A stretch of 64,000 nucleotides of DNA from Squalus acanthias (Eukaryota): NCBI GenBank assembly GCA_030390025.1, contig CM059431.1, positions 143,904,001 through 143,968,000 on the forward strand, in the 5' to 3' direction. Below the pieces are notes generated by a model. It was not told the origin of the DNA and ran no database searches. It saw only the letters and a list, made by a program, of their open reading frames with translations. The stretch's first letter is position 1. Every line of letters starts with the position of its first letter. The position numbers and the translations under genes were made by a program. Positions 2,520 through 43,731 of the stretch are shown here, piece by piece.

Positions 2520-5118
2520 GCAGAAGCAGTAACCTTGTCACGAGCCAATTGCTGAAGGGCCAGAGATTGTCACAAGGGCCTGTCACTTGGCCTGAGAGGC
2601 TCCGGTCACGGGGAAGTGGAAAGCGCAGGAGACAGTAGGTGCCACCCTTTACACAATTCACCTCCTTCGACCCTGAGGCACAGATGCGAGGGGCATATCT
2701 GTCAATTTTTTTAATTTGCTATTATTTAAATGCTAGCGTTGTGTTATTTTGTGAAATTTCTATTTGTGACTCATAGTGTATTTAACCATTTCGTTTTATA
2801 TGTAAAGCCACCAGTCACATTATTTATTTTCTCAACTTTTTTTATTAACAATCAATTGAACATTACAACTGTTTAAAACATTAGAAAATAGCTAGTTTTC
2901 ATCTTGAATGAAAAGTCTTTATTGCACTAAGAAAGCCAAAATGTCACATTAAAATGTTTACATTTTTTATCAACCAATTGATCTTTGCAAATGTTTACAA
3001 AGTATAAAATAGCTAGCTAACAATTTGTATTTAAAGACGAAGAACATCAAAACAGTATAACAAAAGTTTTTGATGCTGCAATTAACGTTCACTGTTTCAC
3101 TTTAAATTGTGTCTGTTCTTTTCTCTGCCTTGCTGGGGGAGGGGTAGGTAGGAGGCGACACTAACATCACCTCGTAAACGTGTTGGCTACTAGCAGTTCC
3201 CGAGCAGCTTTGCTTTCGGCAGCAATTAGCTCCTCCTCATCAGGCCTGGCCACATGGACATTGACATCATCCATGTCCTCCATTTCAGCAGCAAGCTCCT
3301 CTGCAGGGTTAAGGGTCCGTCCTTCCCGCAGGGCAAAGTTGTGCAAAGTGCAATAGGCCATCACAATCCGTGACACTTTCAGAGGAGAATACTGCAAACT
3401 CCCAGCCCCGCCCCCCCCCCCACAACCCCCCGTCCTGTCCAGGCACCGGTAGCGTGATTTCAGAAGCCCGATTGTCCTCTCCACCACTTGCCATGTGGAC
3501 ATGTGTGCCCGGTTGTATCTCTCCTGAGCCTCATTATTGGTCCTGCGGTATGGTGTCATCAGCCACGGTTTTAGCATTAGCCCTTGTCGCCCAATATCCA
3601 TGCGGATCCTGGAGGCAATGTGCTGCAGGCAATATAAGTCCGAGTGACGGAGGACAAAGGATTCATGAGCACTTCGCTGGTGATCTGTATTCACAGTTAG
3701 GATCCTGAGTTGCGCATCACAGACGATCATAACATTTAATAAATGAAACCCCTTCCTGTTGTTGTATGTCACAGGTGCATCAATTGATGCCTTCAATGCA
3801 ACATGGGTTCCATCGACGGCCCCAATCACGTTGGGGAAGCCAGCAATCCTATCAAATAAAAGGGCCTCTCCTTTTGCTGACTAGTGGACAAGTCGAAGTC
3901 TATGAACTCAGAAGCCCTGTGGAATATTGCCTCTGCGACCTGGTGAATGCAGGTCCTCGAGCACTCTGGGAGATGTTTGAAATGTCACCGGTGCCTAACT
4001 GAACTGAGCCGCATGCAAAGAAGTTCAGCGCTGTGGCTACCTTCATGGACACTGACAAGGCAGTGAGGGTCTTCGAGCGTGTTTGAAGGCCGTCCTTTAA
4101 CATGTCACATAGTCGACCGATTGCCTCTTTACAAAAGCGCAGCCTGCTCACACACAACTCCTCTGACATCATCTCAGAAGACAGCCTCTCCCTGTACCCT
4201 CTCTGGGTGGGTAGTAGTTCCTCCTGATCAGGTGGCGGTCATGGTTCCTCAGTCTTCATTGTTGTTCCCTGGCGTTTTCGATTCTATGGGCCAGAATCAC
4301 ACAAAAGATTTGGGCAAATTCCTCATGAGGCATGATTCTCCCTCACAGGCTTCCTCTTTAAATAGATCCAGTAACTGTTGAGAAGAAATGGAAAGAGTTG
4401 TAAACGTCATATTAATAAAGTGAGTGGTTAGAAATTCACAGCGGGCGGTGGCGGGAAACGGGCGGTATCGGATCGGCCGCCCGTCAGACCCGCCTGATCA
4501 ATATCACCGCCTGAGAACAATTTCTAAGACTTTTAAAACATTTTACAAAGTCATACATTAATTTGTAAACAGCATAAAAAAATTAACATTTAAAACATTC
4601 ATATATTTTGTCATAATTTTAAACATGAGTAAATGTGACCAAAATCATTTTTAAACAGTCATTTTCAAGTTTAAAAAAAGAAATCTATTTGAATAGAATG
4701 CTCACCTTGTCCACAGCGAAAGTTCCTCTTCTAATCACCGACACTCCTCAGAACTAGATCCAAAACCAATGAAATATTTAACAAATTAAAGTTGTTGCAA
4801 ACTTAAATCAGGCTTTGTATCAAGAATCTTGTTAACTTTAAAAGCTAAAACAGTCCGGTTTCCAGCCCCCTGACTTCCACGTCTTCTTCCTGCTTCTTCT
4901 TTAGATAGAATGCTGGCTGTCCGCCTGCTTTATTTCTGTCGTTGCAGTTTCGTCAGTAACTGCTGGCCAGTAGTTGGACAAATAGCGCAAATCTGCGCCA
5001 AATCGCAATTTCTAATTTTTTAGGGCATGCGCTTCGCATGACTAAACCCGGAACTTGCGCGGCCCCTACGGAGTCTTGCGCACGTCGTACGAACCCGTAG
5101 GGTCGCAAAATACGGCCC
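2520..5118 (-). mobile_element. Partial Harbinger DNA transposon
   Basis: Contains the transposase relic; right end ...ggtcgcaaaatacggccc resembles a GGGCC-type terminal repeat; the left end is not identifiable. Confidence 0.55.
3167..4200 (-). pseudogene. PIF/Harbinger (HARBI1-like) DDE transposase, frameshifted
   Basis: ORF pieces 3900-4172 (RLRFCKEAI...ALNFFACGS) and 3167-3829 (IGAVDGTHV, YNNRKGFH, VVERTIGLLKSRYRCLD, LQYSPLKV...CTLHNFAL) carry Harbinger transposase motifs; the GDKG motif is broken by a frameshift. Confidence 0.9.
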
Positions 5119-7538: not shown

Positions 7539-8444
7539 TTAGTTTTTCATTTTTTTAACCAATATCAGAATCAATATCCAAGGAGATTTCACCACCTTCT
7601 TCAGCTCTTCCCTGAATTTAGTTTGTGTAGCTGCATAAATGCAAGTGTTTGTACAGGAACTCAAATACATGAGCATAGATCCGGTTAGAGTGGCGATCAA
7701 TGCAGGAGATGTATAATCGGGTCGGTGATGCACGGCCAGGTTGATAACTATAGAATTCACGGCAGATGTCAGCCACTACAATACAAAACTGCCCGATAGT
7801 GAACAGTAAAATTATGGATTTCCTTCTGTTTTCCTTCTCTGGATCGCTCTGATTCTCACTACTGTGACCCCGGAGTCCCCTGCGGGCTCTACTGGCAACT
7901 AAAATACGTTTGACTGTCAAACAATTAAACAGTAATATCAAAACAAAAGGAAGACATGGGTTTAAAATACTTTGTAAGCGGTTGTAAGCTACACCTGCAG
8001 GCGATGTATAAAAGGCCGCAATGGGGCGGAATCCCCAGGGAACATTGTTGCTTATTTGTTTGCGTTGAAAGGCAAACCAAAATGGGATGTTCTCTAAATA
8101 AACCAGGACAGAGACCGTTGTTATAACCGAGGCCGCAGTTCTCACTGTGCAATACTTCGTTTTAAACTTCTGACAACATATAGCTACAAATCGGTCAAAT
8201 GTGAAGGAGACGGTAAACTACACCGACATATCCAGGTTGGTACAAGACATGTACATCATGAACTTACAAACGGCAGTGTAGGACAGGAATGAATATGGGA
8301 AGTGATGACTCAAAATGTGATATACGATTACATTGATGATCATGACCAGTAGATCTGCTGTTGCCATGGCCACCATGTAGAGAGAGATACATTTGGAAAT
8401 TCCGCATTTTCCTCTGGAGAGTATCACCATTGTCAACAGGTTCG
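7539..8444 (-). pseudogene. GPR139-like class A GPCR, exon 2; disabled
   Basis: ANLLTMVILSRGKCGISKCISLYMVAMATADLLV...FTFDRFVAIC...SSCTNTCIYAATQTKFREEL. TAG at 8218-8220 where W is expected, plus a frameshift near 7795. Acceptor ttcttacAG ends at 8445. Confidence 0.9.
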
Positions 8445-10439: not shown

Positions 10440-12540
10440 TAGTGATGAGTCTACTCTAATATTACTGGCAATGATTCATCGCTAACATTACTAGTGATGA
10501 CTCCTCTCTAACATTGCTGGCGGTGCCCTACTCTAATATTAATGTTGATGACGCTACGCTGACATTAACGGTGGTGATACTGTTCTACCGTTACTGTTGG
10601 TGATTATACTCTAACAGTACCGCTGGTAACTCAACCCAAGAAACACTGGAGACGGCTCACTCTAACATTATTGCTTGTAATCTTAATCTAATATTACTGG
10701 TGGTGACCCTACTCTAATATTTCAGGTGGTGACTCTATTACCACCTTACTGGTGTTGACCCTACTCTAACATTACTGGTGGTGAGTCTACTCTAACATTA
10801 CTGTTGGTAACTCTACTCTAACATTAATGATGGTGGCTCTACTCTAACATTACTGTTGGTAACTCAACTCTAACATTACTGTTGGTGACTCTACTCTAAC
10901 ATTACTGTTGGTGACCCTGCGCTAACATTGCTGGTGGGGAACCAACTCTAACATTACTGCTGGTGAGCGTACATTAACTTTACTGGCAGTGACTCTAATG
11001 TAATATTACTACTGGTGACTGTACTCTAATTATAGGGGTGATGACTATACTCTAACATAATTGTGGTGACCTTACTCAAACATTACTGGTGGTGACCCTA
11101 CTCTAACATTACTGGCGGTGACTATACTCTAAGATTACTGGTGGTGACCCTACTCTAACATTACTGGCGGTGGCCACACCCTCATATTAATAGTGGTGAC
11201 TCTACTCTAACATAACTGGTGGTGACCCTACTCTAACATTAATGGTGGTGACTCTACTCTAACATTACTGGTGGTGACCCTGCTCTAACATTAATAGTGG
11301 TGACTCTACTCTAACATTACTGGTGGTGACCCTAATCTAACATTACTAATGGTTACCCTACTCTAACATTAATGGTGGTGACTCTACTCTAACCTTAATG
11401 GTGGTGAATCTACCCTAACATTACCGGTAGCGACTCGGCTCGAACATTACTGGTGGTGACTGTACTCTAACATTACTGGTGGTGACCCTACTCTAACATT
11501 AATGGTGGTGACTCTACTCTAACCTTAATGGTGGTGAATCTACTCTAACATTACCGGTAGTGACACGGCTCGAACATTACTGGTGATGACTGTACTCTAA
11601 CATTACTGGTGGTGACTCTACTCTAACATTACTGGTGATGACCCAACTCTAACATTACTGGTTGTGACCCTACTCTAACATTATTGTTGGTGACCGTACT
11701 TTAACATTACTAGTGGTGACCCTACTCTATCATTACTGGAGGTGACTCTACTCTAACATTACTGGTTGTGTTTCTACTCTAACATTACTGGTGAGGACTC
11801 TACTCTAACATTACTGGTGGTGACCCTACTCTTACATTAATGTTGGTGGATCTGCTCTAACATTACTGGTGGTGACCCTAATCTAACATTAATGGTGGTG
11901 ACTCTACTCTGACATTACTGGTGGTGACCCTTCTCTTACATTAATGTTGGTGACACTACTCTAACATTACTGGTGGTGACCCTGCTCTAACTTTACTGGT
12001 AGTGAACCAACTGTAACAGTACTGGTGGTGACCGTACACTAACTTTACTGGTAGTGGCTCTACTGTAGCATTACTGGTTGTGGCTGTACTGTAACATTAC
12101 TGCAGTGACCCTACTCTAACTTTACTGGAGGTGAACCAATTATAACATTACTGTTGGTGACGCTACTCTAACATTACTGGCGGTGACCCTACTCTAACCT
12201 AACTGGAGGTGAACTAACACTAACATTACTGGCGTTGACCGTACATTAACTTTACTGGTAGTGACCCCACTGTAACATTACTGGTGATGACTCTACTCTA
12301 AAATGACTGCTGGTGACTCTACTCTAACATTACTGGCAGTGACCCTACTCTAACATTGCTTCTGGTGACTATATTCTCATGTCATTGGTGATGACCTTAA
12401 TCTAGCATTACTTGTGGTGACCGAACAGTAACATTACCGATGGCGAGTCTACACTATCAGTACTGGTGTTCAGTCAACACTAACATTTTTGGTGGTAACC
12501 CTATTCTATCATTATTCTTGATGACTATACACTAACATTA
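10440..12540. repeat. 26-bp minisatellite
   Basis: Unit ctactctaacattactggtggtgacy repeated over ~2.1 kb; more degenerate at the edges. Confidence 0.95.
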
Positions 12541-12762: not shown

Positions 12763-14712
12763 TGTAAGGAGTATCTTAAGTGGGGTCAGCCTCCAGTTTC
12801 TGACACAGTGAGCGGTTCGAATCACTGCAACACCCCTCCGGTTCCTAGACTTTGGGCTTATTTAGGGGTTGTGAACAAAATTGCAGTAAACAGGTTCTGA
12901 TGAAAGAAATTTACTTTATTAAAAGAAAAAAAAGGTAACAAACTTGAAACACACTTATTACTTAAACACAGATTCGGGAAACACACGGTACAAGCGAGGG
13001 AAATGACAATATATCAAACAAAACCTTATCCCTCCCAAAGATCCCACTATCTGGCTAGGTTTTTGGTTTCAGGATATCAGGGATAATGCTCACCAACGAA
13101 TCCTTGACAGGATATTAGAGTCTTTTGTTTGAAAGGACTCCGTCAGGCCCTTGGTGCTGCGAGGTGTCTGATGGCCACTGCGGCAGTCGCCCTGGTTCCT
13201 TCTTGCTTTGGCCTTCTTCCTCGTGGCTTGGGTAAGTTTTGCTGGAGCAGGGAGAGAGCTCTGTCCGCATCGCCAGTCAGTCCAAAAAGAGAGAGCGAGA
13301 TTATGGCACAGGCTTTCAAATTATACCATTTCTTTTTCGCGCTCAAAAACCCCTTACTAAAACGAATTCCTTTTTGAATGTAAATGACTTTTGCTTCGTC
13401 CAATTGTCTAGTTTTAGGCGGGCTTGCCAGTTCCGATGGTTTTTGCTTAGTGTTAATCGCTTTCCGATTTAAACACCGCCTTATCTACGCGCCAAATCTC
13501 CACCTATTGTTCTTCTGTTGGCGGGCTTTTAAATCTGTTCTCTGGTAACCTGGTTGATTGTTTTTTTTGATTGGATAATGGCTATGAAACTGTGTGATCG
13601 AAGTTATAATGGCCCAGAAATTAAACAGTGAGTGTTCCCGCGGGGGTAAGGATTCCCCACGATATCGCACTCCGCAGCCTACCTTTTTGCTCCGGGCCCA
13701 CACGGACTTTAGTTTGAAAGGCTCCCTCTCTTGGAACCGTGCAGTGCTTGCGTGATCCAGAGACGCAATTAGTTCGTGCGAGCTCTGGGATCACGTGATT
13801 CAGTTAGAGCCAATGGCAGCACACCATCTTTCAGTCATAGATTTGACAGGAAGACCTGTCAAAGCTATGAATACTACACGCCCCCAAAAGAACAGCTAAA
13901 CCTCAATTACATTTTTTAAAAAAGCCATCACATTAATAAAATAAGTATAGTTAAATAAATTAACCACTTTAAACAAAAAATTTAATTTTTGAAAAAATTT
14001 AAAATTCTTTTTAAAAGTTATAAAAATAAACTTACCTTTCTTTAAAGTCTCTAAAAAAGATAAAACTGTTGAAAAAAATTTAAAATAACACTTAATTAAA
14101 TACTTACCTTGTTAAAAGGGGGTCCTACGCCTGCTTTCTTTATGTGTAAAATCTTCACCACTTACCTGCGCGTTCAAAGCTGAAAAAATAACTAAGTGCA
14201 CAGCCTGTAGCGCGCATGCGGTTCACTTAGGAACCACCCTCTTTTGAATTCACGAAGTGCCGGTTTCCCGCGCATGCGCAGTGCATGCAGGAAACCGGCA
14301 ATTGGAGACCTAATACGCGAGAGTACACATTGCGTATTCTCGCGTATTAGGTCTAATTTTCGGGCCATTGTCATTGAATCGTTTTTAGATTTCCAGCATC
14401 TTGTTTGCCCCTGGGGATCCATTATTGAATGTGTTTGTGAGTTTTGCTATTGTTTCAAACAATTCCCAGACAGCTTGATCTGTTCACTGACCGGCCACGC
14501 CCATCGCAACTTGAGTCTGTGAAAAAAATGTCTCTCCCAACAATAAGATTAAAAAAAAATCAGTTTCCTCAGGTTTTCTTCTTGTGATCTTTCTGTTTTT
14601 ACATCAAATCTCTTCACCTGAGGTCCCATCATCCCAAGTTTGTATGAAAAGTCCAAAAATCACTCCCTTTAGGGCTCTGTTCGAGTTTCTGGGGGATTTT
14701 GCGAAGCCTACA
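12763..14712 (-). mobile_element. 3' LTR of provirus copy 2 (with 756-bp insertion)
   Basis: Near-identical to 23647-24844 apart from the insertion at 13611-14366; preceded on the minus strand by PPT aaagtgggaa (14713-14722). Confidence 0.95.
13611..14366. mobile_element. Non-autonomous TIR element (MITE, probably Harbinger-type) inside the 3' LTR
   Basis: Termini ggcccagaaatta...taattttcgggcc; flanked by AAT/ATT; absent from the 5' LTR (empty site gttatattgtca, ~24495-24506). Confidence 0.85.
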
Positions 14713-14994: not shown

Positions 14995-17346
14995 TCAAGG
15001 TTCGTTCCATCCCTGGCCATAGCCTTTATTTTGATGCACTTCCCAAGTCCCTTCGTGTCTGGAGCGGAGCTCCCCGTCCCTTCCCCTGCACTTTGTACAC
15101 AGCAGGTAGAGAACTATCCCGAGCTGGCAGACCACCAAAAGATGGGAAGCCATCCTGATCCAGGACGGCACCTCTATATTCTCGAAAATATCCCACCAGG
15201 GTGGAACTACTATATCCAAAATCTCTGCCCCTATTTCAACTGTTTTCTGTTCCAGGGTGTAGAAATGGTTTCGTGAAATCTCTACAGCTTTAAGTAGGAT
15301 GGTAAGATGTTCGGGTAGAGGGGGAATTTTATATCCAAAGTAAGTCACATACTTTTGCAGGTTGGTGATGTTTTCTGTTACAGTGAGGTGAACAGTGGAG
15401 TGTTCAGGAATGGGGACAATCCGTTCCTGGGCCACTTGAACTTCTGCCTTGGGTTTAAAGCAGAAACTGCTGTCACTTACCAGACACCAGAAGTGTCCAT
15501 GCTGGTAGTGGGACGCACCTGTGGTGACACAATATGTCCCACCCCCTATATATGCTACCTATGGGGAAACATGGCCGTCTGCCATCACCTCCATGGTACA
15601 ATTGAAAGGTCGTGCGCCAGCAGCTTTAAACCCGCACTGTGGTTTGGAATAGGCGTTCAAGTGCTGGGGACACAGTATTATGTGTGAACCGCGGCTCCGG
15701 CACCGGAGAGGTCAGTACCTGTCATGGCGTGCTCCCACTTGATGACAAAAGGTGGGACCGCTGTAAAACGGATGTGTGCACCCCCTTGAATGACTTCAAT
15801 GTTCTCCACCCTGTATACCGGTACGGGTCGGGCTGTCCCACTCATAACCGGCTTTCTCACTACTATCCCCATGATAGTGTGATTTGAACGCCCACAATCT
15901 ATTGGGACAGGGTAGGCTTCAGAGGCTAGACGAAATTGGCATGGGCTCAGCGAAGTACTAATCGGGTGGAGGGCTGCAAGGTGCTTGTTGCTGATCCAGG
16001 AGGGGACTAAACCTTGCTTTAAATCCTCCAGGTTGCTACGGCCCTCGCCCAGCAAGCATGCCCCGTACAGCACACACACCTCATTCTGTGCAGCCTGATC
16101 CGATGCATTCCTATCCTCCTGTATGGGTGCATTTACTGTTTTGGCATGCCTTTCCAATTCTGCAATACTTTCCTTTAAATGAACCGTCATAGCTTGGTCC
16201 TCATGTAGCTCTGAGCCTACCACTGTGTTCCATCCTTCAGCTTCTTTCTTAACTGGGTTTTTAAACCATTTATCTGTGTCTGTAATTCCATGTCATCCAG
16301 GCTCTTTATTACAGAGGACCCTGCACTATAGGCAGTGAAGACATCATTCCAGGCTCCCCTTCTTTGTCTACCCGTGCCCATAGGGTTCTCAGGGTGTATT
16401 CTGTATAGCTCTACTTTGTCTATATTGGCAAAATCAAATTCGTAAAATTCCCTAAACATTTCCTTTAGCAGGGCCTGGTACAGCTGCTCCGTTTCCTTAG
16501 GACACCACTCAGGTAAGTATACCTCGGTAAGGTTTAATATTACTGAAGCTACTGCATAGTGTACCCCCTGGTATAGTAGCTTTTCGGTTGGTACTCGGAC
16601 TAACCCATTCCCTGGACCATTGGTGCTGGTAGGGCACTTTTCTTCCAGGGTTTTCGCTACCTGGGTCGTGGGTAGGGGCTTTCGAGTGTGTGCCACGAGT
16701 TCAGAGGCATTAACTGGGACCGGAATGTGTGGGACCACGCACCCATGCAGGCTAGAATCCCACCCTATCCCCTCCCCGGCATCTTGCCATTGGCTGGAGA
16801 AGATGATGGATACCCCTGTGGGGCAGGCTTCCTCTGATCCCCACATACAAACATAGACTCCCTGTTCCGACTCCCACCACTTATTCCAGCAAACACTAAC
16901 TCCTCCTTGGGTCCCTGTGATTGTCCGGTTGGTGTCGTTCCCTAATCTTTCCCAGTCGGCTGTATGGTCCCCTGCGTCCCTGCTCAGCTTCCTGAGCCAA
17001 CACCACCTATTCAAGGGAATTCGTCCCTTACAGGTAAGGCACACACGCTTCCCCTCGGTGACACTGACCCTTGTGGCAACGACCTGTATTCTGGGGCATG
17101 GGAGGGAGGCCTTCCCGTACGTGAACCCGGGCTGGTTGTAGTATTTAGTAGAGTTGGACCCCAGCCACCCTGGCCACCTTCCCTCGTGGAAGTAGATGGC
17201 GAGCTCCTTCACTCCCCGCTCGCCACCCCTGCGTTGACGACTGGTGCTCTCACTCCTGAGCACCCATAGATGTGGGAGTCCTCCACGTCACCTCGGTCAC
17301 CGATGCTCACCCCTACCAGGGCGAGCAGGAGCAGAAACCTTGTCAT
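14995..17346 (-). pseudogene. env: env glycoprotein (signal peptide, Ig-like module, furin site, heptad repeat, Cys-rich region, TM); frameshifted
   Basis: ATG at 17346 gives MTRFLLLLALVGVSIG. ORF pieces 16217-17263, 15678-16223 and 14995-15435. RQRR|GAWNDVFTAYSAGSSV at 16358-16369; DLSGC..ILCPQ..CGF..NCTMEV..YCVTT..FCF; PPWWDIF followed by a hydrophobic TM. Confidence 0.85.
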
Positions 17347-17919: not shown

Positions 17920-20900
17920 CTAAACAGATACACCTGTGGCCACAGTAGCCTTTGCTGTGGTGTGCGGGGAGACCTTCTTAGGGCTCTGGCCACTGGGGGT
18001 GTGCTTGAGTCCCACATAATCGGTGGAGTGACCTCTCCTGTGAGACAACACACTGCCCTCTCGCTGCAGCTTGTACGTCTGCCACAGCTGCGGCTGGCTG
18101 CGGATTTCTATCTTGGGGCCATTCAGCTTTGGCGGTTGTTCCCTTTTAGGTTTAAATAGTTTGCATTGGTTGATGTGAAACCACTTTGTACGGCGGGGCA
18201 TCTTTATGGCATAGACCATGGGGCTTGCCTTGTCTACAATGTTGTAGGGCCCCATGTACAATGGTTCGAAACTCCCTACCCGGGCAAAATTTCTCACCAT
18301 GACCTGATCTCCAACCTCCCACTCGTGGTGCTTGCGGGTTTCCAGCAGCAATGGCTTACCCCGATGCTGTTTTCCCATGTTACTCGCAGCCTGCCAGTGG
18401 ACCTGTTTAAGGTGGTCCAACAGATTGCTGACGAATCTGTCCCGGTTCAACTCCCTGAGCTGCCCTTCCGTGAGCACCGGGGCTAGCACATGGGTGGGGT
18501 CCGCATAATCCTGCCAGTCATGAGCTGGTGTGGGGAATACCCCGTGCTTTTTCACTGGCTGGCCCGGATCCCCATTAGAACCAACGGTAAGGCTTCTATC
18601 CACTTTTTGGGTGAGTTTCCCATCTCCTTTCGCAGCCTTTCCTTGATGGTACGGTTTAAACGCTCCACAATCCCTGATGACTGTGGGTTGTGGGCGACGT
18701 GCCATTTCCCTTCTATGCCGAGTACCCTGAGGGTCTCTTGCATGACCTGCCCAGTAAAGTGACTCCCCTGGTCTGACTCCACATACTGTGGAAGCCCCCA
18801 CCGTGAGAACACTACCCTGACCAGAATCCTGGCTGTACCCAAAGCGGTAGCTGTTCGACATGGAAAAGCTTCCACCCACTTTGAGAACACATCCACCAGG
18901 ACTAGGCAGTATTTGTAGCCTCGCTGAGCGGTGGGTAGGGGCCCGATGTAGTCGACCTGGATCGACTGCCATGGTCCCTCTACCCTCCTGATGTGTCCCA
19001 TATATACCTTCCTTTTCTGGGGGTCAGGGTTGTTGGCAGCACACACCAGACAGCCTGCACAGAACTCGCGGACATCCTCCCTCAGTCCTGGCCACCATCC
19101 TGCCTGTTCCACCCGCTGCCAGGTGGTCTCAGGCCCGGGATGCCCCGCTCCTGGTCCCGCATGGGCCAGTTGGAGGAATTCCCTTCGGTGCTGCTGCGGC
19201 ACTACCTATTGTTCCCCCCTGAATAGCGTGCCTTCTTTGTGGGTGATGGCTGCTGCGCCGTATGGGCCCTCTACCTTCTCTCCTCTAGCCAGCGTTTCCA
19301 GGACAGTTTTTAGGATGGGATCCTGTGCCTGGACCGTCTTTAGGTCCGGGGTCAATGCTACCCCTGCACTCCGTTGGGTCCCTCCTCTACCTCTGATTGC
19401 TGCACCGGGTTTGATCCATATGGATCCCACAACGTGCCTGTACTGGCGCCCTCTTTGGCCAGAATGTCGGCTTGGTGATTGCCCTCTGCGCGGGGCTCTA
19501 ACTTGGAATGTGCCTTCACCTTTTGGATGTAGACCCTACCTTCCTCCCTGACTGCCCTCATGATTTTCTCCAACAGAGGCTTGATGGCCAGGCGTCTCCC
19601 ATCAGCGGAGGTGTATCCACGACGGGACCAGATGGCCAGGTACTCTGTACACGAATTGCATGTGAACACGCTGTCGGAGCAAATAATGTATGGGGTAGGG
19701 AATTCCTCGGGGTGTGTGACTACATACACCACCGCAGACAGTTCAGCCTGCTGGGCACTCATGGTGCTGGGGAGCTTGATTGCCAGAGCAATGCCTGTCT
19801 CTGGGTCATAAATCCCACACCCTGTGAGTCGTTTTCCAGCTGATGCTGTGCTTGAACCGTCCACATATATTTCGCGGCCTGTGGGGTGTATCCCACCTCG
19901 CAAACCTATGTTGACTTCCCATACACCTTCAACCGAACACCGGTGGGCTGTCCCTGAGTAAATCATGTTAGCTGCGAGCTTTGGCTCGCAGAGACCTTTT
20001 ACCCTCAGATCCATTTGTGAGAGAAGCAGGGTCCAGCGAGCAATGCGGGCATTGCTCACTGTCCCATCATTAATTCTCCCATCCAAGAGCATCTGGGTGG
20101 GCGTGTGGTGAGTGAGGAGTGTGATGGGAGAGGTGCCTGTGAAGACCAATGATCTTTTCACAGCCCAGTGAGTGGCTAGGAGGTGCCTCTCACAGTTGGA
20201 GTAGCTCCTCTCCACATCAGTGAGTATTCTGGAGGAGTAAACAGCTGGTCTCAGCTTGCCATGCCTCTCTTGGAGCAGTACTGCACTCAGACTGTCCCCA
20301 CTGGCTGCTACCTCCAGAAAAAAACTCTTTCCCTCCATCAATGGCCCCTAGAGCCGGAGCGGTCTGCAGATCTCTCTTGAGTTTCACAAAGGCAGCCTCG
20401 CAACCCTCATCCAAAACCCACTCCCCTCCCTTGTGTAGGAGTCGGAGCAGAGGGGCTGCTGTGGCTGCGTAATCCTCAATGAAATCTCTGCAGTACCCAG
20501 TTAGCCCTAGAAAAGACCTTACTCCTGTAACTTTGTTGGGGGCTGGTAACTCCTGAACTGCTTCCCTTCTAGCTTTGTCAATGGTCCTCTCCCCTGCTCG
20601 CACAGCCAGGCCCAGGAATTTAACATCCCGCTGGCCAATCTGTGCCTTCTTGGGGTTTACTTTAAAGCCTTCTTGCTTGAGCAGTTCCAGCAGTTCTGCC
20701 AGAAGGGGACCATGTTCCTCTCCCTCATCGGTAAAGAGGAGTAGGTCGTCCACATACTGGACCAGCTGATGGGGCCTGCTGAAGCCCATCAAGCAATTCG
20801 CCATACATTGGTGAAAAATGCTTGGGCTGTTGTGGAAATCCTGGGGCAGACAGTTCCATGTGTACTGTGGGCCTTTAAATGTAAAGGCGAACTTGTACTG

Positions 20901-21820
20901 ATCCTCTCTCCTTAGAGGGATGGACCAGAACCAGTTGGAAATATCCAGCACTGTAAAGATATTCGCAGATGCTGGGATACTTCCAATGAGGTCGGCTACG
21001 GCTGCAACCGTGGGGGCACAGGCGGGGATGTTTCGGTTGAGTACTCGATAGTCCACTGTGGCCGTCCAGGAGTTGTCTGGTTTTCTAACCGGCCACAGTG
21101 GGGAGTTCACGTGGGTGACTATAGGTCTCAATACCCCCTGCTTGAGTAAAGAAGTCAAAGCCGTTTCCAAGTCTGTCTCAGCTTCCCTGGGGAAGTTATA
21201 CTGCTTTTGTGGGCGGTTCATGGGGTCCCCACTTACACTAACCTCGACCCCGGTTACCCTCCCACAGTCGTGCTTGTGAGTGGCAAATGCTGCGAGGTTT
21301 TCCTGCACAAATTCCTGGTACTCCATTGGAGTGTTACTGACCATGAGTTCGAGGTCGTAACCCTCCTTTGGTTTTACTTTGCACAAGGTCCCCTTGCCTT
21401 GTGCCTCCGGGATGACTGCTACATCAGTACCTTTTGGGTACATGCTCCCCATAGACAGTGGTTCCTTAAATCCACTAAAATCCTGTGGCCTGTGATAAAA
21501 TCGGCCCCCAGGATCCCCTGCCCTTCTTGCTCCCACTTCATTAGGACACAGGTCCACTTGGTGTGGAGCGTTCCCAAATGAATGGAAAGCGGGATGGAGA
21601 ATGAGCCAGCCTGCTCGTTACCTGTGAATCCCACTAGGCTGTACGGGACCCCGTTAGACAGAGGTGAAGTGGCTGCGTTATCTGAATAAATGAGGGTGCT
21701 CGAAGCTCCTGTGTCTAACAGATAGGTCCCTTCTACCTTTTCTACCTCCATCTTAACATGCGGTCTCTTCCAGGCATCATACTCGACGGGACACAGGTAG
21801 ACCGGCTGTGCTAGCTCCAG
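17920..21820 (-). pseudogene. pol: pol: protease, RT, degenerate RNase H (tether), RNase H, integrase; frameshifted
   Basis: PR LLDTGAS...GILGADF; RT WPVRK, VLDISN, LPQDFHNSP, YVDDLL; tether LEVAAS/CERHLLA/THH; RH YVDGSS/AELSAV/CSDS/NHQAD; IN H-H-C-C, VDYIGP, SDQG, GIVER, GPY. Confidence 0.92.
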
Positions 21821-23644
21821 TCATGCCTCTGGGTTGGGTGGGGCAGATGGGATCAGAGAGCCAGTGGCTGTAGCCACCTTCCCTGGGCCATCAAACAGGT
21901 CTATGCTGGCCGCTACTATTGTGTCCAGTGTGGGGGAACAGGTCGGTGCCTCAACTTTTGGGGCAGGAGTTGGTGACGTCTTTGCTAGGCTATCCTTCCA
22001 GGGATTCCTACTGTCCTTTCTCCAGTGCCCAGTCTTCCCGCACCCGAAGCAGCTACGCTTCGTGTCGGAAGGTTTACCACCTTCCTGGTGCCACTCCTTC
22101 TTATCCTGGCTGGGCTTTATCTCATGCACCTTCCCTTTCGGTGGGGTGTCTTCTGCTCCCCTACCGTTCCGGTAGGGTAGTGTCAGTTGCCTGACCACTG
22201 CCTCCTCGGTGACCCGGGGATCTCTTGTGTCAAACCAAAGCTCAGACTTGGCTTTTACTCGTGGCAAGCTGTTTGCCACTAGGCTACGGACCAAGTGGGC
22301 CAGCTCGTCCCTGTTCAGGTTAGCCCGGTCGAGAGCCCCATTACAAGCACCCCTGTACACCGGCCACAGCCTGTCTGCGAAAGCCTGTGGCATCTCCCCT
22401 GCGAGCTGCACTGTTTTCTCCACCCGGGAGAAAGGACTTCCCTCATTCATTCCCATGGCCTCTAATACTTCCTCCCTTACGGCAGCATACCCGGTCTGTC
22501 CTCTCTTGCTCTCAGCAGAGAGTGTCTGGTAGAAATTGCCATCTCATGAGAACAGGAGCAATTTTGCCATTTCGGCATCGTCACAATCGTTTATGGCTGC
22601 TGATTGTTCCACCTCCATGAAGTGGACTGAGGGGTCTTCCTTTTGGGTAAGTTTACTCAGGTGGCTTACCATAGCTCTAAGCTGTTGTGTACCGTGGGGA
22701 GCCAAGAACTGACTTTCAAGGGGTCCCTGACCTCCACCACCGGCGGGCGGGCCGAATTTTTGCTGTCGTGCTGGGCACATTCGTCCTGGCTCCGACTTCT
22801 CCTGCATCGGTTCGCCCCCCTCTCCCTGCTGCCAGACCGAGTCAAAACTCGGCGCCACAGGTGCTGGTGTGCACTCCCTGTCAGCCTCACAGATTGTCTG
22901 CACCTCCTGCTGCCTAACCAAGCTTCTCCTTGGCGCCACAGGTGGTGTTCTAACAGTCTCCCCCTGCTCTTCCAGGTCTGCCTGGGCCGCACCCGGACTT
23001 ATCCGGCACAGCATGCCTTTCGTCTTGGACAGAGCAAGGTTCAGACTCTCAATCTGCTTCTGACAGGGGCCGTGGTCCCCTACCTCAAACGCCGTTGTAC
23101 TGGCTACTCTATAGGCTGCCTGAACATCGTTTAACTTCTCTCTGAGTTCCCGTAATTGCTTTGCAAGGCGGGTGTTCTCTTCCCGCAATGCCAGTTCACT
23201 ACTTTTGGCCTCGGTGGCCTGACACTCGAGGTATCACTTACTGGCACGGTGTTCCTCCAGCATCTGTGACTGTTCCTGATCTTTTGTGCCGAGCTCTGCT
23301 AACAACCTATCCCCTGCTATAGCACTGGCACGGGACAGTTGGCTTTCTTCCGTTAGCTCTTCTGTGAGAGCATGAATGAGCTTCCCCATAAGCTGCATTT
23401 GTTTCTGGGAGCAGACCAACCATATGGCTTTCTCCACAGACTTATTGTATTCCTTGCTCTCAGTCCATGCAGCTGCAGCGTCCATAGGACGTTCAGCATG
23501 CAACAGCCTGAGGACCCATTTCTTGGTGTTATTTACTTTTTTATATACATAGGATGACATCCTCTCTTCCATTTTTGTTCTCTCCTCAAAACCAGCATTT
23601 ACTGCTTCACAACCCTTTCGCCAAAGTCCTGCCGCGGTCGCCAT
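21821..23644 (-). pseudogene. gag: gag: N-terminal coiled coil, capsid-like region, zinc knuckle; two internal TGA stops
   Basis: ORFs 23234-23644, 22544-23188 and 21821-22456 share one frame; heptad-rich REENTRLAKQLRELREKL; knuckle CFGCGKTGHWRKDS with the last Cys replaced by Ser. Confidence 0.88.
23626..23643 (-). promoter_or_regulatory. Primer-binding site complementary to tRNA-Arg(TCG)
   Basis: Plus strand gtcctgccgcggtcgcca equals the 3' 18 nt (with CCA) of vertebrate tRNA-Arg-TCG as I recall it; 3 nt from the 5' LTR. Confidence 0.85.
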
Positions 23645-23646: not shown

Positions 23647-24844
23647 TGTAAGGAGTATCTTAAGTGGGGTCAGCCTTCGCTTTCTGACACAGTGAGGGGT
23701 TCGAATCACTTCAACACCCCTCCGGTTCCTAGACTTTGGGCTTATTTAGGAGTTGTGAACAAAATTGCAGTAAACAGGTTCTGATGAAAGAAATTTACTT
23801 TATTAAAAGAAAAAAAAGGTAACAAACTTGAAACACACTTATTACTTAAACACAGATTCGGGAAACACACGGTACAAGCGAGAGAAATGACAATATATCA
23901 AACAAAACCTTATCCCTCCCAAAGATCCCACTATCTGGCTAGGTTTTTGGTTTCAGGATATCAGGGATAATGCTCACCAACGAATCCTTGACAGGATATT
24001 AGAGTCTTTTGTTTAAAAGGACTCCGTCAGGCCCTTGGTGCTGCGAGGTGTCTGATGGCCACTGCGGCAGTCGCTCTGGTTTCTTCTTGCGCGCTGGTCT
24101 TCTGGCCTTCTTCCTTGTGGCTTGGGTAAGTTTTGCTGGAGCAGGGACAGAGCTGTGTCCGCGTCGCCAGTCAGTCCGAAAAGAGAGAGAGATTATGGCA
24201 CAGGCTTTCAAATTATACCGTTTCTTTTTCGCGCTCAAAAACCCCTTACTAAAACGAATTCCTTTTTGAATGTAAATGACCCTTGCTTCGTCCAATTGTC
24301 TAGTTTTAGGCGGGCTTGCCAGTTCCGATGGTTTTTGCTTAGTGTTAATCGCTTTCCGATTTAAACACCGCCTTATCTACGCGCCAAATCTCCACCTATT
24401 GTTCTTCTGTTGGCGGGCTTTTAAATCTGTTCTCTGGTAACCTGGTTGATTGGTTTTTTTGATTGGATAATGGCTATGAAACTGTGTGATCGAAGTTATA
24501 TTGTCATTGAATCGTTTTTAGATTTCCAGCATCTTGTTTGCCACTGGGGATCCATATTTGAATGTGTTTGTGAGTTTTGCTATTGTCTCAAACAATTCCC
24601 AGACAGCTTGATCTGTTCACTGACCGGCCACGCCCCTCGCAGCTTGTGTCTGTGAAAAAAATGTCTCTCCCAACAATAAGATTAAAAAAAAATCAGTTTC
24701 CTCAGGATTTCTACTTGTGATCTTTAGGTTTTTACATCAAATCACTTCACTGAGGTCCCATCAACCCAAGGTTGTATGAAAAGTCCAAAAATCACTCCCT
24801 TTAGGGCTCTGTTCGAGTTTCTGGAGGATTTTGAGAAGCCTACA
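23647..24844 (-). mobile_element. 5' LTR of provirus copy 2 (1198 bp)
   Basis: TGTA...TACA termini; direct repeat of 12763-14712. Confidence 0.95.
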
Positions 24845-26405: not shown

Positions 26406-26496
26406 AAGTCATAGAGTCATAACGGCACAAAATAAGGCTATTCGGCCCATGGAGTACGTGCCGGCTCACTGTAGAGCAATGCAGTCAGTCCCATTC

Positions 26497-29400
26497 ATAG
26501 AGTCATAGATTTATACAGCACAGAAAGAGGTCCTTCCGCCCATCGTGTCCGCGACGGCCATCAAGCTCTATCTATTCTAATCCCATTTTCCAGCACTTGG
26601 TCCGTAGTCTTGTATGCTATGACGTTTGAAGTGTTCATCTAAATGCTTCTTGAATGTTGTGAGGCTTCCTGCCTCTATCACCCTTTCAGGCAGTGAGTTC
26701 CAGATTTCAACCACCGTCTGGGTGAAAAAGTGTTTCCTTAAATCCCCTCAAAACCTCCTGCCCATGACCTTGAAACTATGCCCCCTGGTTATTGACCCCT
26801 CCATTAAGGGGAAAAGTTCATTTCTATCTAACCTATTTATGCGACTCATAATTTTGTACACCTCCATCAGGTCCCCTCTCAGCCTTCTCTGCTCTAAGGA
26901 AAACAACCCCAGCCTGTTCAGTCTCTCTTCATAGCTGAAGCGCTCCAGCCCAGGTAACATCCTGGTGAATCTCCTCTGCACCCTCTCCAAAGCAATCACA
27001 TCCTTCCTATAGGGTGGCGACCAGAACTGCACACAGTATTCCAGCTTTGGCCTAAGTAACGTTTTGTACAGCTACATCAAAAGCTCTCTGCTCTTATATT
27101 ATATGCCTCGGCTAATGAAGGCAAGTATCCCATATGCCCTTTTAACCACCTTATCTACCTGTCCTGCTGCCTTCAGGGATCTATGTACATGCACACCAAG
27201 GTCCCTCTGATCCTCTGTCCTTCCTAGGGTCCTACCATTCATTGTGTATTCCCTTGCCATGTTAGTCCTCCCAAAATGCATCACCTCACACTTTTCAGGC
27301 TTAAATTCCATTTGCCACTGTTCTGCCCATCTGACTATATCGTCCTGTAGCCCGAGGCTTCCCTCCTCGCTACTTACCACTCCACCAATTCTTGTGTCAT
27401 CTGCGAACTTACTGATCATACCTCCTACATTCATATCTACACTACAAACAGCAAAGGACCAAGCACCGATCCCTGCGGTACACCACTGGACACAGGCTTC
27501 CAGTCACAAAAACAACCTTCGACCATCATCCTCTGCCTCCTGCCACTAAGCCAATTGTGGATCCAATGTGCCAAATAGCCGTGGATCCCATGGGCTCTTA
27601 CCTTCTTGACCAGTCTCCCATGCGGGACTTTGTCAAAAGCCTTACTGAAGTCCATGTATACTGCATCAACTGCACTACCCTCATCCACACACCTAGTCAC
27701 CCCCTCGAAAAATTCAATGAAACTAGTGAGACATGATCTCCCCCTGACAAAGCCATGCTGACTATCCTTGATTAATCCTTGCCTCTCCAATTGGAGACTA
27801 TTTCTGTCCCTCAGAATTTTTCCAATTATTTCCCTACCACTGATGATAGGCTCACTCGCCTGTAATTCCCTGGATTATCCCTAGTACCCTTCTTGAATAA
27901 TGGTACTACGTTAGCTGTCCCCCAGTCCTCTGGCACCTCCCCTGTGGCCAGAGAGGTTCTTAAAATTTGTGTCAGAGCCCCTGCAATCTCCTCCCTTGCC
28001 TCACACAGCAGCCTGGGATACATCTCGTCTGTGCCTGGGGACTTGTCCCATTTGAAGCCCACTAAAACCGCTTGTAGCTCCTCCCTCTCAATGCTAATTT
28101 GTTCAAGTATATCACAATCCCCCTGCCTGATTTATATGCCTACATCATCCTTCTCCATAGTGAACACAGACGCAAAATATTCAATTAAAACCTCACCCAC
28201 ATCTTCCCGCTCTACACACAGATTGCCACTTTGGTCCCTAATGGGCCCTACTCTTCCCCTGTATATCCTCTTACCCGTAATATACTTATAAAGCACCTTG
28301 GGATTTTCCTTTATTTTGCATGCCAGTGTGTTTTCATGCCCCCTCTTCGCTCTCCTAATTCCTTTTTTAAGTACCCCCATGCACTTTCTATTCTCCTCTA
28401 GGGCTTCCACTGTTTTGAGTCATTTGTATCTGCCAGAAGCCTACCTTCTTTTCCTAACCCATTCTTTTATATCCCTTGACATCCAGGGTTCGCTGGGCTT
28501 GTTGGTCCCACCCTTGACATTTACGGGAACATGTTGGCATTGTACTCTCTCTATTTCCTTTCTGAAAGACTCCCTCTGCTCTGATTTGGATTTTCCTACA
28601 AGTAGCTGATCCCAATCCACTTTGGCCAGATCCTGCCTTAACATATTAAAATAGGCCTTCCCCCAATTTAGAACCTTTATTTCCGGTCCATCTTTGTCCT
28701 TTTCCATGACTACCTTAAATCTCACCGAATTATGGTCACTGTCGCCAACATGCTCTCCTATTGACAGTCCTACCACTTGCCTGGCTACATTCCCTAGAAT
28801 TAGGTCGAGTACCGCCCCCTCTCTTGTACGACTTTCTACATGCTGGCTCAAAAAGCTCTCCTGGATGCACTTTATGAATTCTGCACCCTCTAAGCCTTTC
28901 AGTCTCTGTCTATCCCATTTAGTATTGGGGAAAATGAAATCCCCTATTTTATAACCCTATTATTTCTACAGTTCTCTGAGATGTGCCTACATATCTGTTC
29001 CTCTATCTCCCCCTGACGGCTTGGGGGCCTATATTACACTCCCAGCCAAGTGCTTGCCCCCTTTTTGTTTTTAAGTTCTACACATATGGCCTCATTAGAG
29101 GAAGCTGCTGAGATATCATCCCTCCTTATAGCTGTAATTGTCTCCTTGATTAATATTGCGACACCCCCTCCTCTTTTACACCCCCATCTGTCTCGCCTGA
29201 AGATACTATACCCCGAAATATTGAGCTGCCAATCCTGCCCCTCCCTCAACCATGTCTCTGTGATAGCAACAATATCATACTCCCATGTGTTTATCAACAG
29301 CTTCAATTCATCTGGCTTACTCGCAAGAATCCTTGCATTAAAATAAGTGCCATCCAGCCTTGCAATATTCCCTTGTGCCGTTTCATACTTGCACTGCCTT

Positions 29401-29874
29401 CCAGGCTTACTTGATTTTTCCTCTATATTTGGCTGTGCATCACCCCCTACTATAGCTCCAATCCGTATCCCATCCCCCTGCCAAGTTAGTTTAACCCCCT
29501 CCCCACCCCCCCAACAGTACTAGCAAACCTTTCCGCAAGGATGTTGGTCCTGTTCCTGTTCAGGTGCAACCCGTTCAACTTGTACAGGTCCCACCTTCCC
29601 CCGAAGCAGCCGCAGTGATCCAGGAAACTAAAGCCCTCCCTCCTGCTCCAGCTCATTAGCCACGCATTCATCTGCTCTATCCCCCTATTGCTGTACTCAC
29701 TAGCACGTGGCACCGGGAGTAATCCCGAGATTACAACATTTGAGGTCCTGCTTTTTAATCTGCTACCTACCTCCCTAAATTCTTGTTGCAGGACCTCATC
29801 CCGCTTTCTACCCATGTCGTTGATACAAATGTAACCACGACCTCTGAGTGTTCGCCCTCCCCCTTCAGAATGCC
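26497..29874 (-). mobile_element. CR1 LINE: partial ORF1 (SGNH/esterase-like) plus ORF2 (EN+RT) and 3' tail; decayed
   Basis: ORF1 VVISGLLPVPRA...GLHLNR; EN DIVAITETW, LDLIL, SDHN; RT QHGFVRGRSC, GVPQGSVLGP, KFADD; tail at ~26497. A second short CR1 tail lies at 26406-26496. Confidence 0.92.
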
Positions 29875-32800
29875 TGACATGAATCGTGTCATTCATGTGT
29901 AAATGACTTATGAAATAATGCTGGGCGGCCTGCTGGTGGTGCTGTCCAGGGAGAGTATAAATACTCGGGCATGGGGCCAGCTTGCTCAGGACATTCTTTA
30001 ACAGGAACTAGTGAAGGACACAACTAGATCTCCATGTTGAAAAACAGTTGATTAGAGCCTTGTTTAATACTCAGACCAAGTGCCGAGTAGTTTTCTTACG
30101 TCAATTTAATCAACTGAACCTGCTCCACGCTCTGAGTGATTTAGGGAACACACAGCTAGGACTCAAACTGTAGAAGGGAACCAGATGTAGTAATCAATCC
30201 ATCATGTAGACACTACTCAGACCCGCCCGTCTTGACCTGGACCCGAATTCACCTACAGCTGCTAAGGTATGGAAACACTGGTATCGTACCTTCAGCAACT
30301 TCCTCAAGGAGTGTGGTGAGAATGTTCCTAATGAGTTACGAATGCTTGCCAATTATGTATCCCCTCATTTGTTTGACTATATCGAAGACTGTGTAGACTA
30401 TGATTCTGCTATCCAAACACTACAGCAACTATATGCTAAGGCCCCAAACGAAATTTTTGCTCGTCACCTACTGGCCACAACTCGACAACAACCCACGGTA
30501 TCACTTGACGAATTCCTTCAAGAGCTTCGCAGGCTCAGCAAAGGTTGTAACCTCAAAGCTGTCTCAGCTGAGCAGTACCGGGAGGAATTAATTCGTGACG
30601 CTTTTGTTAATGGAATTGCTTCTCCCCTCAGACACCAGCGTCTGTTGGAGAATAAAACCCTCGGGTTACAAGCTGCCTATAACCAGGCATATTCTCCGGA
30701 CATAGCTCAAGAAAACTCAGATGCCTATTTTTTAACACGTGCACGGGCTGCTGCGACCACTTTTAGTGACTCCTCAGGTAAGCCTCAGGCGGAAGCACTC
30801 ACTGATGACGACCCTACCCTAGTGGCATCTTGGCAATCTAAAACAAAGTGTTTCTTCTGTGGAGGTGCATTCCACTATAGGAAATTTTGTCCTGCTCATA
30901 ATGCAACCTGCAATCATTGCAGTAAGAAAGGTCACCTTTCTAAGGTCTGCCGGTCAGGAGCCTCGATTAGTGTTGCAGCTGCTTTCTATAAAACTGCTCC
31001 TCCTCCCATCACAGCTGTTTTTCCCCAAAGCCTGTCCCATGCAGCCACGAGGGTTTCGGTGAATGTACACATTTTGAGTGCATTAATCGACTCATGTAGC
31101 TCTGAAAGCTTCATTAGTGAGCGGCGGTCAGTAAGTTAAAACTGCGTATTTACCTCTCGGACAGGGAAATTGCAATGGCTCTGATGACACTGACCAACAA
31201 CTCTTCCGGCTTTTGTCTTGTCAACCATATTCTCAATGATCGCACATATTTCTCCACCCGGCTCGGGATGCTCAAAGACCTATGCAGTGATGTGCTCCTG
31301 GGACAGGATTTCCAGAAACAACACACAAGACTCACTTTCGAGTTTGGAGGGTCAAAGCCAGAGCTCACTATTTCCAAAGTACTGTTTTGTGTGCTTTCGG
31401 CAGCTTCGCTCGATGAGCCCTCCTTGTTTGCTAATCTTTACCCCTGATGTAAGCCCATAGTCACTAAATCACGACGTTTCAGCCAAGATGAACTATCCTT
31501 TATCGAGGCAGAGATCGTTCGCCTTCTAGCTGACGGTATCATTGAGCCATGTTCATCTCCCTGGCGGGCTCAAGTCGTCGTTGTTAAAAATCCTCTGAAG
31601 CAACACATGAAAAGTCTTTGCATCGATTACTCGCAAACTATTAACCAGTATACCGAGCTGGATGCCTACCCACTACCACGCATCGATGACATGGTCAATC
31701 ACCTTGCCAACTACAGGGTATTTTCAACTTTTGACTTGAAGAGCGCATACCATCAAGTACCGTTAAATGATCTGACAAAAAGTATACGGCTTTTGAGGCT
31801 TTACCAGTTTTGTCGCCTTCCATTTGGGGTCACCAATGGGGTGGCTGTCTTCCAACGGGCAATGGATAGCCTAGTCAAACAGGAGAACTTATACGGACAC
31901 TTTTCCATATCTGGATAATATTACCATTGCTGGTCATGACCAGAAGGAGCACGATGCCAACCTCCAGAAATGTCTTGACGTTCTCTAATCGTCACAACTT
32001 AACCTTAACCTTAACCGCCTGTTATGCGAAGTGGATACTACACTTTTCCGACAAGATCCAGCCCCTGCTTCACGCAAAGTAATTTCCGTTGGAGGCAATG
32101 GCTATTTCAGCTTTTGACCTCCTCAAGCAACAACTGGAAAAAGCCACGCTTCATTCCATCAATGAAAACCTTCCTTTCGTGGTCGAGTGCAATGCATCGG
32201 AGGTGGCGATCTCGGCTAGCTTGAATCAAGGCGGTCGACCCGTTGCATTTCTGTCCAGAACCTTGCAGGGTAGCGAGATCCATTATCGTCCTGTCGAGAA
32301 TGAGGCTATGGCTATCATCGAAGCATTATGTAAATGGAGTCATTTTCTCACTCGTCGCCATTTCATGCTCAGTGCTCTGTGGCCGTTATGCTCGATAAAC
32401 GGAAACGCACAAAGGTCAAGAATAACAAAATACAGCTCTGGAGGATGGAATTGGCCGCCTTTGGCTACACCATAAATTATCGACCCGGCAAAGAGAATGT
32501 GGCCCTGGATACACTGACTCGTGCATTCTGCTCTTCCATGTCAACTTCGACTCTTGCAGATCATCATACTGACTTGTGCCATCCTGGCGTTATCCGTATG
32601 TTGCACTTTGTGTGATCTAAAAATCTCCCATTTTCTACAGAAGACGTGAAAAGAACATGCTCCACTTGTAGAATTTGCTCCGAATTAAAACTGCAATTCT
32701 TCCAAACGTCGGCTGGCTCACTCATACACGCTACACAGCCTATGCAGTGACTCAGCATTTACTTTAAAGGGCCATTGCCTTCCTCAACGCGAAACACCTA

Positions 32801-34085
32801 CTTGCTTACTATGGTGGACGAATATTCACACTTTCCCTTTGCTTTCCCCTGTCCCAATATGTTTACTTCCACAGTGATCAAATGCCTCGATCAGGTCTTT
32901 TCCCTTTGCGGTATGGCCAATTTCATCCACTCTTATCCGGGTCCCTCCTTCATGTCAAGCGAAATCAAAAGTTATCTTTCCCAACGGGGAATCGCCAAAA
33001 GTAAAATGACACCGTATCATCATATTGGAAACGGACAGGTTGAGAGATACAACGCTATCATTTGGAACACTGTTCGTCTTGCACTGAGGTTACACAATCT
33101 ACCAGACCAGCAGTGGGAAACTCTGCTCTCTGACGCGATGCATTCCAACAGGTCTCTTCTTTCTACATCCACCAATGTTACTCCTTATGAAGGATTCTTC
33201 GGGTTCCAGCATCGCTCCACTTATGGGACGTCCCTACCATCATGGTTGGCCGCTCCTGGCTCCGTGCTGCTCTGAAGATTCGGACGATCCTCCAAGAGTG
33301 ATCCCCTCGTCGACAAGGTGGAAGTAACGGATGTCAATCCTACTGACGCGTACGTGCGGTACCCTGATGGCCGGGAGTCCACAGTTTCACTGCGGGATCT
33401 GGCTCCCTGCCCAACCGGTCCCACGGACCCAATCGATAGAAAGATCTGTATTAATGACGCCGATACTCCGCGCTCCTCCGAGGATGACGCCCTACCCAGG
33501 ACATCAAGGGATCTGCCAGCTACTCCACCGGATCAACCCGGGGAACAGAGCACTCCCCGCCGGATGGCCACCCGAAGCCAGGACGCTGGTCAATCACCGT
33601 CTACAGAGCAGGATGAAGCCAGCTCTGCAGCTGTGGTGGCCTGCACCCGGAGACACGATCTCCCCAGTCCCCCTCAGGTCTATCCATGCGACACGAGCTC
33701 TGCCAGTCCGCCGGTACGAACCAAGCGTCCCAGGGACCAAGACACGGCCTGAGGAGACGTGTTTTCCAGCCACAAACGGAGATCAAAACGACTGCGGCTA
33801 TTCTTAGTCCGATTAATCCGATAGAAGGAAGTCGCCGGACTTCCAATCTTTCAGGCGGGAAGAATGACATGAATCTTGTCATTCATGTGGAAATGACTTA
33901 TGAAATAATACTGGGCTGGTGGCGCTGTCCAGGGAGAGTATAAATACTCGGGCACGTGCCCAGCTTGCGCGGGACATTCTTAACAGGCACTAAAAAAGGA
34001 CACAACTAGACCTCCATGTTGTAAAACAGTTGATTAAAGCCTTGTTTAACGCTTAGACCAAGTGCCTAGTAGTTTTCTTACGTCA
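29875..34085 (+). mobile_element. Small Ty3/Gypsy LTR retrotransposon (Mag-like); decayed
   Basis: LTRs 29875-30103 and 33865-34085 (TGAC...GTCA, TATAAA inside); PPT aggcgggaagaa; gag from 30204 with two knuckles; PR LIDSCSS; RT FDLKSAYHQ and YLDN; RH; IN after RH. Confidence 0.92.
30204..33752 (+). pseudogene. Gypsy gag-pol polyprotein remnant
   Basis: ORF pieces 30342-31139, 31175-31447, 31607-31918, 32089-32475, 32334-32615, 32775-33275 and 33318-33752. Confidence 0.88.
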
Positions 34086-43730: not shown

Positions 43731-43731
43731 T

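Follow-up and report, generated by a model that had tools for sequence, protein, structure and literature searches.

Malik and Eickbush are said to have described, in 2001, the tether (or connection domain) of retroviral polymerases as a degenerate Gypsy RNase H. The same description is given in PMC4408406, PMC7947760 and PMC9040795. The MLV (4mh8) and foamy virus (7o0g) enzymes have in common with the element reported here the order RT-tether-RNase H-integrase (IN), a tether that has lost D-E-D-D and a His-containing RNase H of the cellular type. Dual RNase H domains with a Ty3-like tether are also found in lokiretroviruses (Loki) and in Odin, with identities to Ty3 RNase H of 32% for a Loki tether and 27% for Odin (Wang and Han; PMC7947760, PMC9040795), and the Loki Pol entries examined lack the same acidic residues. 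The tandem arrangement itself is already known: retroviruses have been described with it, and little-eroded tethers have been published for Loki and Odin. Plant Tat elements gained a dual RNase H (gRNH-aRNH) independently (Ustyantsev et al., 2015; PMC4408406). Tat resembles the present element in that an acquired RNase H comes after a degenerate one, but differs in its independent origin and in an archaeal-type second domain with Arg, whereas that of the element has His.

Most RTs of endogenous retroviruses (ERVs) from cartilaginous fishes belong to clade III (PMC11089739). In the elephant shark, CmiERV lineage I clusters with the snakehead retrovirus, SnRV (Han, 2015; PMC4422223), and SnRV has been associated with clade Huo and the class III ERVs (Xu et al., 2018; PMC6001957). 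By eye, CmiERV lineage I is like the present element in its RT motifs (LDISNGFWSIPL and LPQGFHNSP), in a tether reading LEVAG, CERHLLA and HSPH that is followed by an intact second RNase H, and in its cartilaginous-fish host; the available text of PMC4422223 contains no discussion of the tether. The two differ in their primer-binding sites (PBS) and in env, which by eye is gamma-type in CmiERV lineage I (LQNRMALD, CX6CC) and is long and apparently non-gamma in the element. Of 13 viral loci, SnRV matched the RT best (L001, 40%, with RT motifs that match the named SnRV row), and 13 of 18 PBS bases are common to SnRV and the element. However, the SnRV tether is more eroded, its IN does not group with that of the element and its env does not match.

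The tandem domains considered here lie in a 64,000-nucleotide stretch of the Squalus acanthias genome (contig CM059431.1), hereafter the window. They are very probably the Pol tether and RNase H of an endogenous retrovirus with a canonical RT, most likely an SnRV-related member of class III (clade Huo), resident in a cartilaginous-fish genome. Both sit inside a 12-kb minus-strand provirus with the layout LTR-PBS-gag-pro-pol-env-LTR, in which env is recognized by anatomy only. The 5' LTR (23647-24844, minus strand) has TG...CA ends and is 95–96% identical by blastn to the 3' LTR (12763-14712, minus strand), which is split by a 758-bp insertion at 13609-14366. This insertion carries terminal inverted repeats that begin with GGCCC, shows a nearly perfect duplication of 3 bp, and is presumably a non-autonomous element of the PIF/Harbinger type. 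No clean target-site duplication was found in the provirus flanks. A tandem array of period 26 at 10482-12540 adjoins the provirus, and a second partial copy in the opposite orientation (plus strand), comprising the env 3' end and an LTR at 79–90% identity, occupies window positions 1-1956.

The PBS (23626-23643, minus strand) lies 3 nt past the 5' LTR, and 13 of its 18 bases match the site of L001. The sites of the element and of L001 are taken by us to correspond to tRNA-Arg isoacceptors. The PBS string had no match in the literature searched, nor in the available CmiERV supplement (PMC4422223). The K2P distance between the LTRs is 0.031 over 1191 sites, which corresponds to about 70 million years under the rate that PMC4422223 assumes for sharks and to about 7 million years at a mammalian rate; these ages are so far apart that the insertion is only loosely dated.

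Between the LTRs, all on the minus strand, gag (21821-23640) has internal stops, a capsid-like part and one CCHC knuckle (zf-CCHC, E 0.009, below the cut-off), and matches a gammaretroviral gag frame weakly (E 2e-5 within a local set). The aspartyl protease with its LLDTGA motif (21419-21820; Pfam gag-asp_proteas, E 5.6e-7) is separated by a frame break from the polymerase and thumb of the RT (20330-21280), which carries QYVDD, matches RVT_1 at E 8e-29 and finds MLV and foamy RT as its best PDB matches. Another frame break, near 20320-20347, lies between RT and tether. The integrase (18080-19205) has an H2C2 motif, a core and an SH3-like C-terminus by Pfam and is interrupted by a stop as well as by frame breaks. 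With stops and frame breaks in gag, in pol (including the RT/tether junction) and in env, this copy is dead. Parts of the element are present in 20 of the 22 sequencing runs listed, and four runs from four organisms and four studies yielded between 35 and 467 matching contigs each. No RNA run was listed among those with a match, which carries no information on expression.

Several other features share the window. A degraded ordinary Gypsy element (29875-34086, plus strand) has a CCHC gag, RT, a single RNase H and integrase between 230-bp LTRs that are 88% alike, and is flanked by 1.8-kb inverted arms (26495-28271 and 34093-35872), also 88% alike. The minus strand further contains a DDE_Tnp_4 transposase fragment (3170-3880, E 1e-23), a rhodopsin-family receptor fragment (7621-8217; 7tm_1, E 2e-5, below the cut-off) and a GDSL/SGNH esterase-like frame (29489-30007, E 8e-6, below the cut-off), which we take to be a possible LINE ORF1 remnant. 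In addition to the 26-base array, long tandem arrays are found at 52612-60779 and 62092-63369 (both period 39), 42776-46425 (period 21), 49939-50680 (period 51) and 1971-2502 (period 67).

Both RNase H-like domains are encoded in one stop-free minus-strand frame at 19361-20347 (329 aa). A Pfam scan of this frame detected PF17917 (RT_RNaseH) at aa 7-111 (E 6.6e-19), PF17919 (RT_RNaseH_2) at aa 6-69 (E 2.4e-13) and PF00075 (RNase_H) at aa 159-301 (E 4.9e-20). The tether, a degenerate Gypsy-type RNase H fold, spans 19961-20329 (minus strand), as delimited by the first two matches, a column alignment and the AlphaFold elements at aa 9-129. A linker at 19874-19960 (minus strand; pLDDT about 50 for aa 121-150) joins it to an RNase H of the cellular/retroviral type at 19445-19873 (minus strand), which matches gammaretroviral RNase H and human RNase H1. 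The preliminary description had read the motifs VAAS, ERHLLA and THH in the first domain and YVDGSS, AEL, SDS and QAD in the second, and this reading is correct. Its claim of a Gypsy-type first domain with the catalytic residues lost also stands: where aligned Gypsy domains have D-E-D, this domain has Ala (20306-20308), then His (20183-20185) and again His (20108-20110), and the fourth site is Asn or Met, non-acidic in either case, the alignment being off by one column there. The second domain is intact, as claimed, with D at 19859-19861, E at 19742-19744, D at 19673-19675, H at 19508-19510 and D at 19466-19468.

An AlphaFold model built from a 56-row alignment (pLDDT 86) contains two well-predicted alpha/beta domains and a low-confidence linker. 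Domain 2 of the model superposes on human RNase H1 with a Z score of 18.8 and an rmsd of 2.5 Å over 146 residues. The whole two-domain model matches the foamy connection and RNase H with a Z score of 19.4 over 280 residues, at an rmsd (16.5 Å) that is high because the domain orientation differs. As a single sequence, domain 1 retrieved no Ty3 or retroviral chain from the PDB at E<=1, so that the link to these chains required a profile. A profile of 13 tether-region sequences gave nearly the same score with the MLV connection domain (44.6 bits) as with Ty3 RNase H (43.1 bits). A profile of 23 relatives aligned in one stretch along the RT, connection and RNase H of MLV (positions 48-649) and of foamy virus, and along Ty3 its alignment ended at position 467.

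Relatives were taken as the best 150 of 2554 matches from a search of 1.84 billion representatives, and the residue counts that follow refer to the rows covering the tether. The 79 two-domain rows among these comprise 64 representatives and 15 close cluster-mates. D-E-D in the first domain was found in none of the 79, as compared with 22 of 31 single-domain rows; 64 of the 79 keep none of the three residues and 15 keep at least one. Seven of the 31 single-domain rows also keep none, and these resemble retroviral or Loki gene models without a detected second domain. A further 21 short rows fall outside both classes, five of them with D-E-D. The second-domain sites are nearly invariant (D 88/88, E 85/88, D 88/88, H 88/88, D 88/88). 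In three proteins (P0016, P0017 and P0020) the tether is followed by integrase and a second RNase H was not detected, which may reflect either real deletions or errors in the gene models. Among named proteins, the nearest (83%) comes from the sevengill shark Heptranchias perlo, which points to a cartilaginous-fish host. Word-based homologue searches returned one match, two matches and five irrelevant long proteins, a single-protein scan of viral contigs found no match, and a metagenome scan found no close relative (best 38%).

The tether is at least as well conserved as the enzymes around it. Its identity to P0002, a separate full-length relative (83%), is 89%, as compared with 81, 77 and 85% for RT, RNase H and IN, and its identity to the frog protein P0005 is 48%, as compared with 50% for RT and 35% for RNase H. 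This indicates purifying selection and fits a structural role. A more specific role, kept or gained, might be proposed for the His that stands in place of the former Glu (CE[RK]HLL), such as a contact with the hybrid or with metal, given that the tether is as conserved as RT, that His occurs in seven of the 64 two-domain representatives among the best 150 of 2554 matches (the named ones including shark-like, frog and Xenopus proteins) and that by eye it is also present in CmiERV lineage I (PMC4422223, available text). However, Ala, Glu, Ser, Gln, Thr or Tyr takes its place in other relatives, the other two sites vary freely, and fold and polymerase contacts would explain the conservation, which makes a dedicated function of this His unlikely.

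The 45-row RT tree places the element in a 33-row retrovirus clade (support 100/99), as does a mixture-model quick tree (98), and, more narrowly, in a group of 12 rows (96/91), among them frog, Xenopus, coelacanth and turtle proteins. The element belongs neither to the gamma/epsilon clade (99/97) nor to the foamy clade (100/100), and SnRV (L001) is at the base without a supported order. The Loki clade, whose anchors are P0064 (its motifs match those of Loki-Npa) and the Labeo rohita protein P0027, is separate (96/98), and an AU test rejected trees in which it was forced together with the group of the element (p=0.001). By its RT placement, the element belongs to the canonical Retroviridae, outside the lokiretroviruses. 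Because ERV-L and class II references were missing from the trees (a single class II genome having been left out) and SnRV sits at an unsettled base, membership in class III and the SnRV-related clade Huo is the most likely assignment and not a firm one.

The element could instead be a lokiretrovirus, or Odin-like, and would then extend that group to cartilaginous fishes. A tether followed by RNase H is a defining Loki feature, and the tether of the element is as Gypsy-like as those of Loki. Other Loki traits are an RT sister to that of canonical retroviruses, an RNase H that groups with the foamy one (group I), an integrase close to CGIN1/NYNRIN and an Env related to F of the Mononegavirales. 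Its integrase groups weakly (83/87) with Loki-type, frog and coelacanth integrases and not with that of SnRV, in a tree from which NYNRIN was absent; relatives of the element are automatically named NYNRIN-like, as are the Loki-type carp proteins. In layout and cysteine spacing, its env looks by eye like that of Loki, with an extra N-terminal region that has a weak Ig-like match. Against this, the RT lies outside the Loki clade, as does the second RNase H, which falls outside a Loki and foamy group recovered at 99/95 in the RNase H tree. The motifs differ as well: the RT reads LPQ.FHNSP and not CPFG or MPFG, and GFHNSP and CERHLL have no match in the available Loki supplement, where CEKALL has 18. 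A tether tree groups the element with canonical tethers rather than with Loki, though weakly (94). Odin retrotransposons, which were absent from the trees, are described with dual RNase H, no env, an RT sister to Loki and sea-anemone hosts; the element has an env-like gene, and its RT motifs are unlike the Odin rows by eye. Loki membership is thus largely refuted by the RT and RNase H placements, and is very unlikely.

The env of the canonical-RT element occupies 14995-17346 (minus strand) in several broken pieces and is assigned by anatomy. It comprises a signal peptide (about 17296-17346), a weak Ig-like domain (16847-17095; Ig_3, E 0.045, below the cut-off), an RQRR site (16358-16369) and a membrane helix (15097-15153), all on the minus strand, with an ectodomain of about 400 codons before the helix. 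CX6CC is absent from the three main env frames, and from its sequence this env is judged not to be gamma-type. By-eye comparison of layout and cysteine spacing with the Loki Env text suggests that it is probably F-like. Pfam, the ESM Atlas, a PDB sequence search and comparison with retroviral genomes assigned neither F nor any other type, and a single-sequence fold model reached a pLDDT of 33; blank searches of this kind are no evidence against an F-type fold. The env is probably a more unusual feature of the element than its tandem domains.

How Gypsy-like the tether is was judged from PF17917 scores. The window tether scored 68.5 bits, about half of the 125 and 134 bits of two true Gypsy RNase H domains and 8 bits above a walleye-virus-like Pol (60). 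Among 30 proteins scanned, from which the following were picked, five Loki-type proteins scored 70–77 and nine named or close relatives 54–82. Two gammaretroviral (MLV-like) Pols gave 47–48 bits, the MLV-like tether used for comparison being at 48, an SnRV-like Pol 46 and two foamy Pols 22–23, and an alpha-type Pol did not match. A ranking by Smith-Waterman and HMM produced the same order, but it is biased towards the window sequence, which had served as query for its 16 Gypsy domains, and the Pfam scores were therefore taken as the independent yardstick. By these scores the tether stands at the well-preserved end of a continuum and is more Gypsy-like than gamma, foamy and snakehead tethers. 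The same degree of preservation is seen, on the same measure, across the frog, coelacanth, turtle and shark lineage and in lokiretroviruses, and is not unique. The term "little-eroded" in the preliminary description holds, then, relative to MLV and foamy tethers; it does not hold against true Gypsy RNase H, and the property is common to the lineage and Loki. When each domain was given its own HMM scan and tree, as had been suggested there, domain 1 came out as Gypsy-type among retroviral and Loki tethers and domain 2 as cellular/retroviral RNase H.

The preliminary description had also called the element an intermediate. With a retroviral RT (100/99) and an env present, it is not a transitional LTR retrotransposon, and domain 1 is a tether. 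Nor does the element show the Ty3/Gypsy arrangement of a single active D-E-D-D RNase H directly after RT. A young intermediate comparable to plant Tat, that is, a Ty3/Gypsy retrotransposon whose second RNase H was a recent, independent acquisition and whose first is being lost, has in its favour that domain 1 aligns clearly with Gypsy RNase H, that some relatives are automatically named "Gypsy retrotransposon integrase-like" and that Tat is a precedent for independent dual RNase H (PMC4408406, available text). It is nonetheless highly improbable, since the RT is retroviral, a quick tether tree splits the tether of the element, along with those of retroviruses and Loki, from 10 Gypsy RNase H domains (99), the losses are common to frog, coelacanth and turtle sequences at 35–50% identity, the Pfam score is half that of true Gypsy RNase H, and no close relative among the best 150 of 2554 matches has a single D-E-D RNase H. 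A recent duplication as the source of the tandem domains is likewise rejected.

The last alternative, random decay of this one copy after insertion, draws on its many breaks and the 3% difference between its LTRs, but is rejected as scarcely credible: P0002 has the same A/H/H, frog and Xenopus proteins have A/H at these sites, D-E-D occurs in none of the 79 two-domain rows, and in the four runs, with all bins covered, none of the 40 best-supported of 268 differences falls in the three tether codons. The losses are thus fixed across relatives, which settles the point on which the preliminary description had made its reading depend.

By analogy with known retroviral RT structures and the papers on them, the polymerase of this retrovirus would copy RNA into DNA, and the second domain, with its D-E-D-H-D residues, would degrade the RNA of the hybrid and remove primers. 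The first domain would be the ancestral Gypsy RNase H, whose metal-binding acids were presumably lost before the lineage diversified. It may have been kept under selection as a spacer that places and orients the hybrid between polymerase and RNase H, as analogy and the available text of PMC4408406 suggest. What was observed directly is the anatomy, the residues, the fixation of the losses, the conservation of the tether and the placement of the RT.

No paper on the tether of this lineage was found by title or abstract opening, in a search to which subscription papers and Repbase were external. Tethers of this lineage align about as well to Ty3 RNase H as to the MLV connection domain, and can thus be used as stepping stones in tether trees. 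The combination in one lineage of a canonical RT, an integrase near that of Loki and a probably F-like env bears on how often retroviral modules are swapped. It is conceivable, although rather doubtful, that shark, frog, coelacanth and turtle elements form a little-described, deep-branching canonical lineage with the most Gypsy-like tether in the Retroviridae, a Loki-like integrase and, in the shark family, an F-type envelope, and that this lineage bridges Loki and Odin to the classical retroviruses. Canonical tethers have been considered too diverged for a direct tether tree (PMC9040795). If such a bridging lineage exists, it would make a single origin of the tether testable by exactly such a tree.
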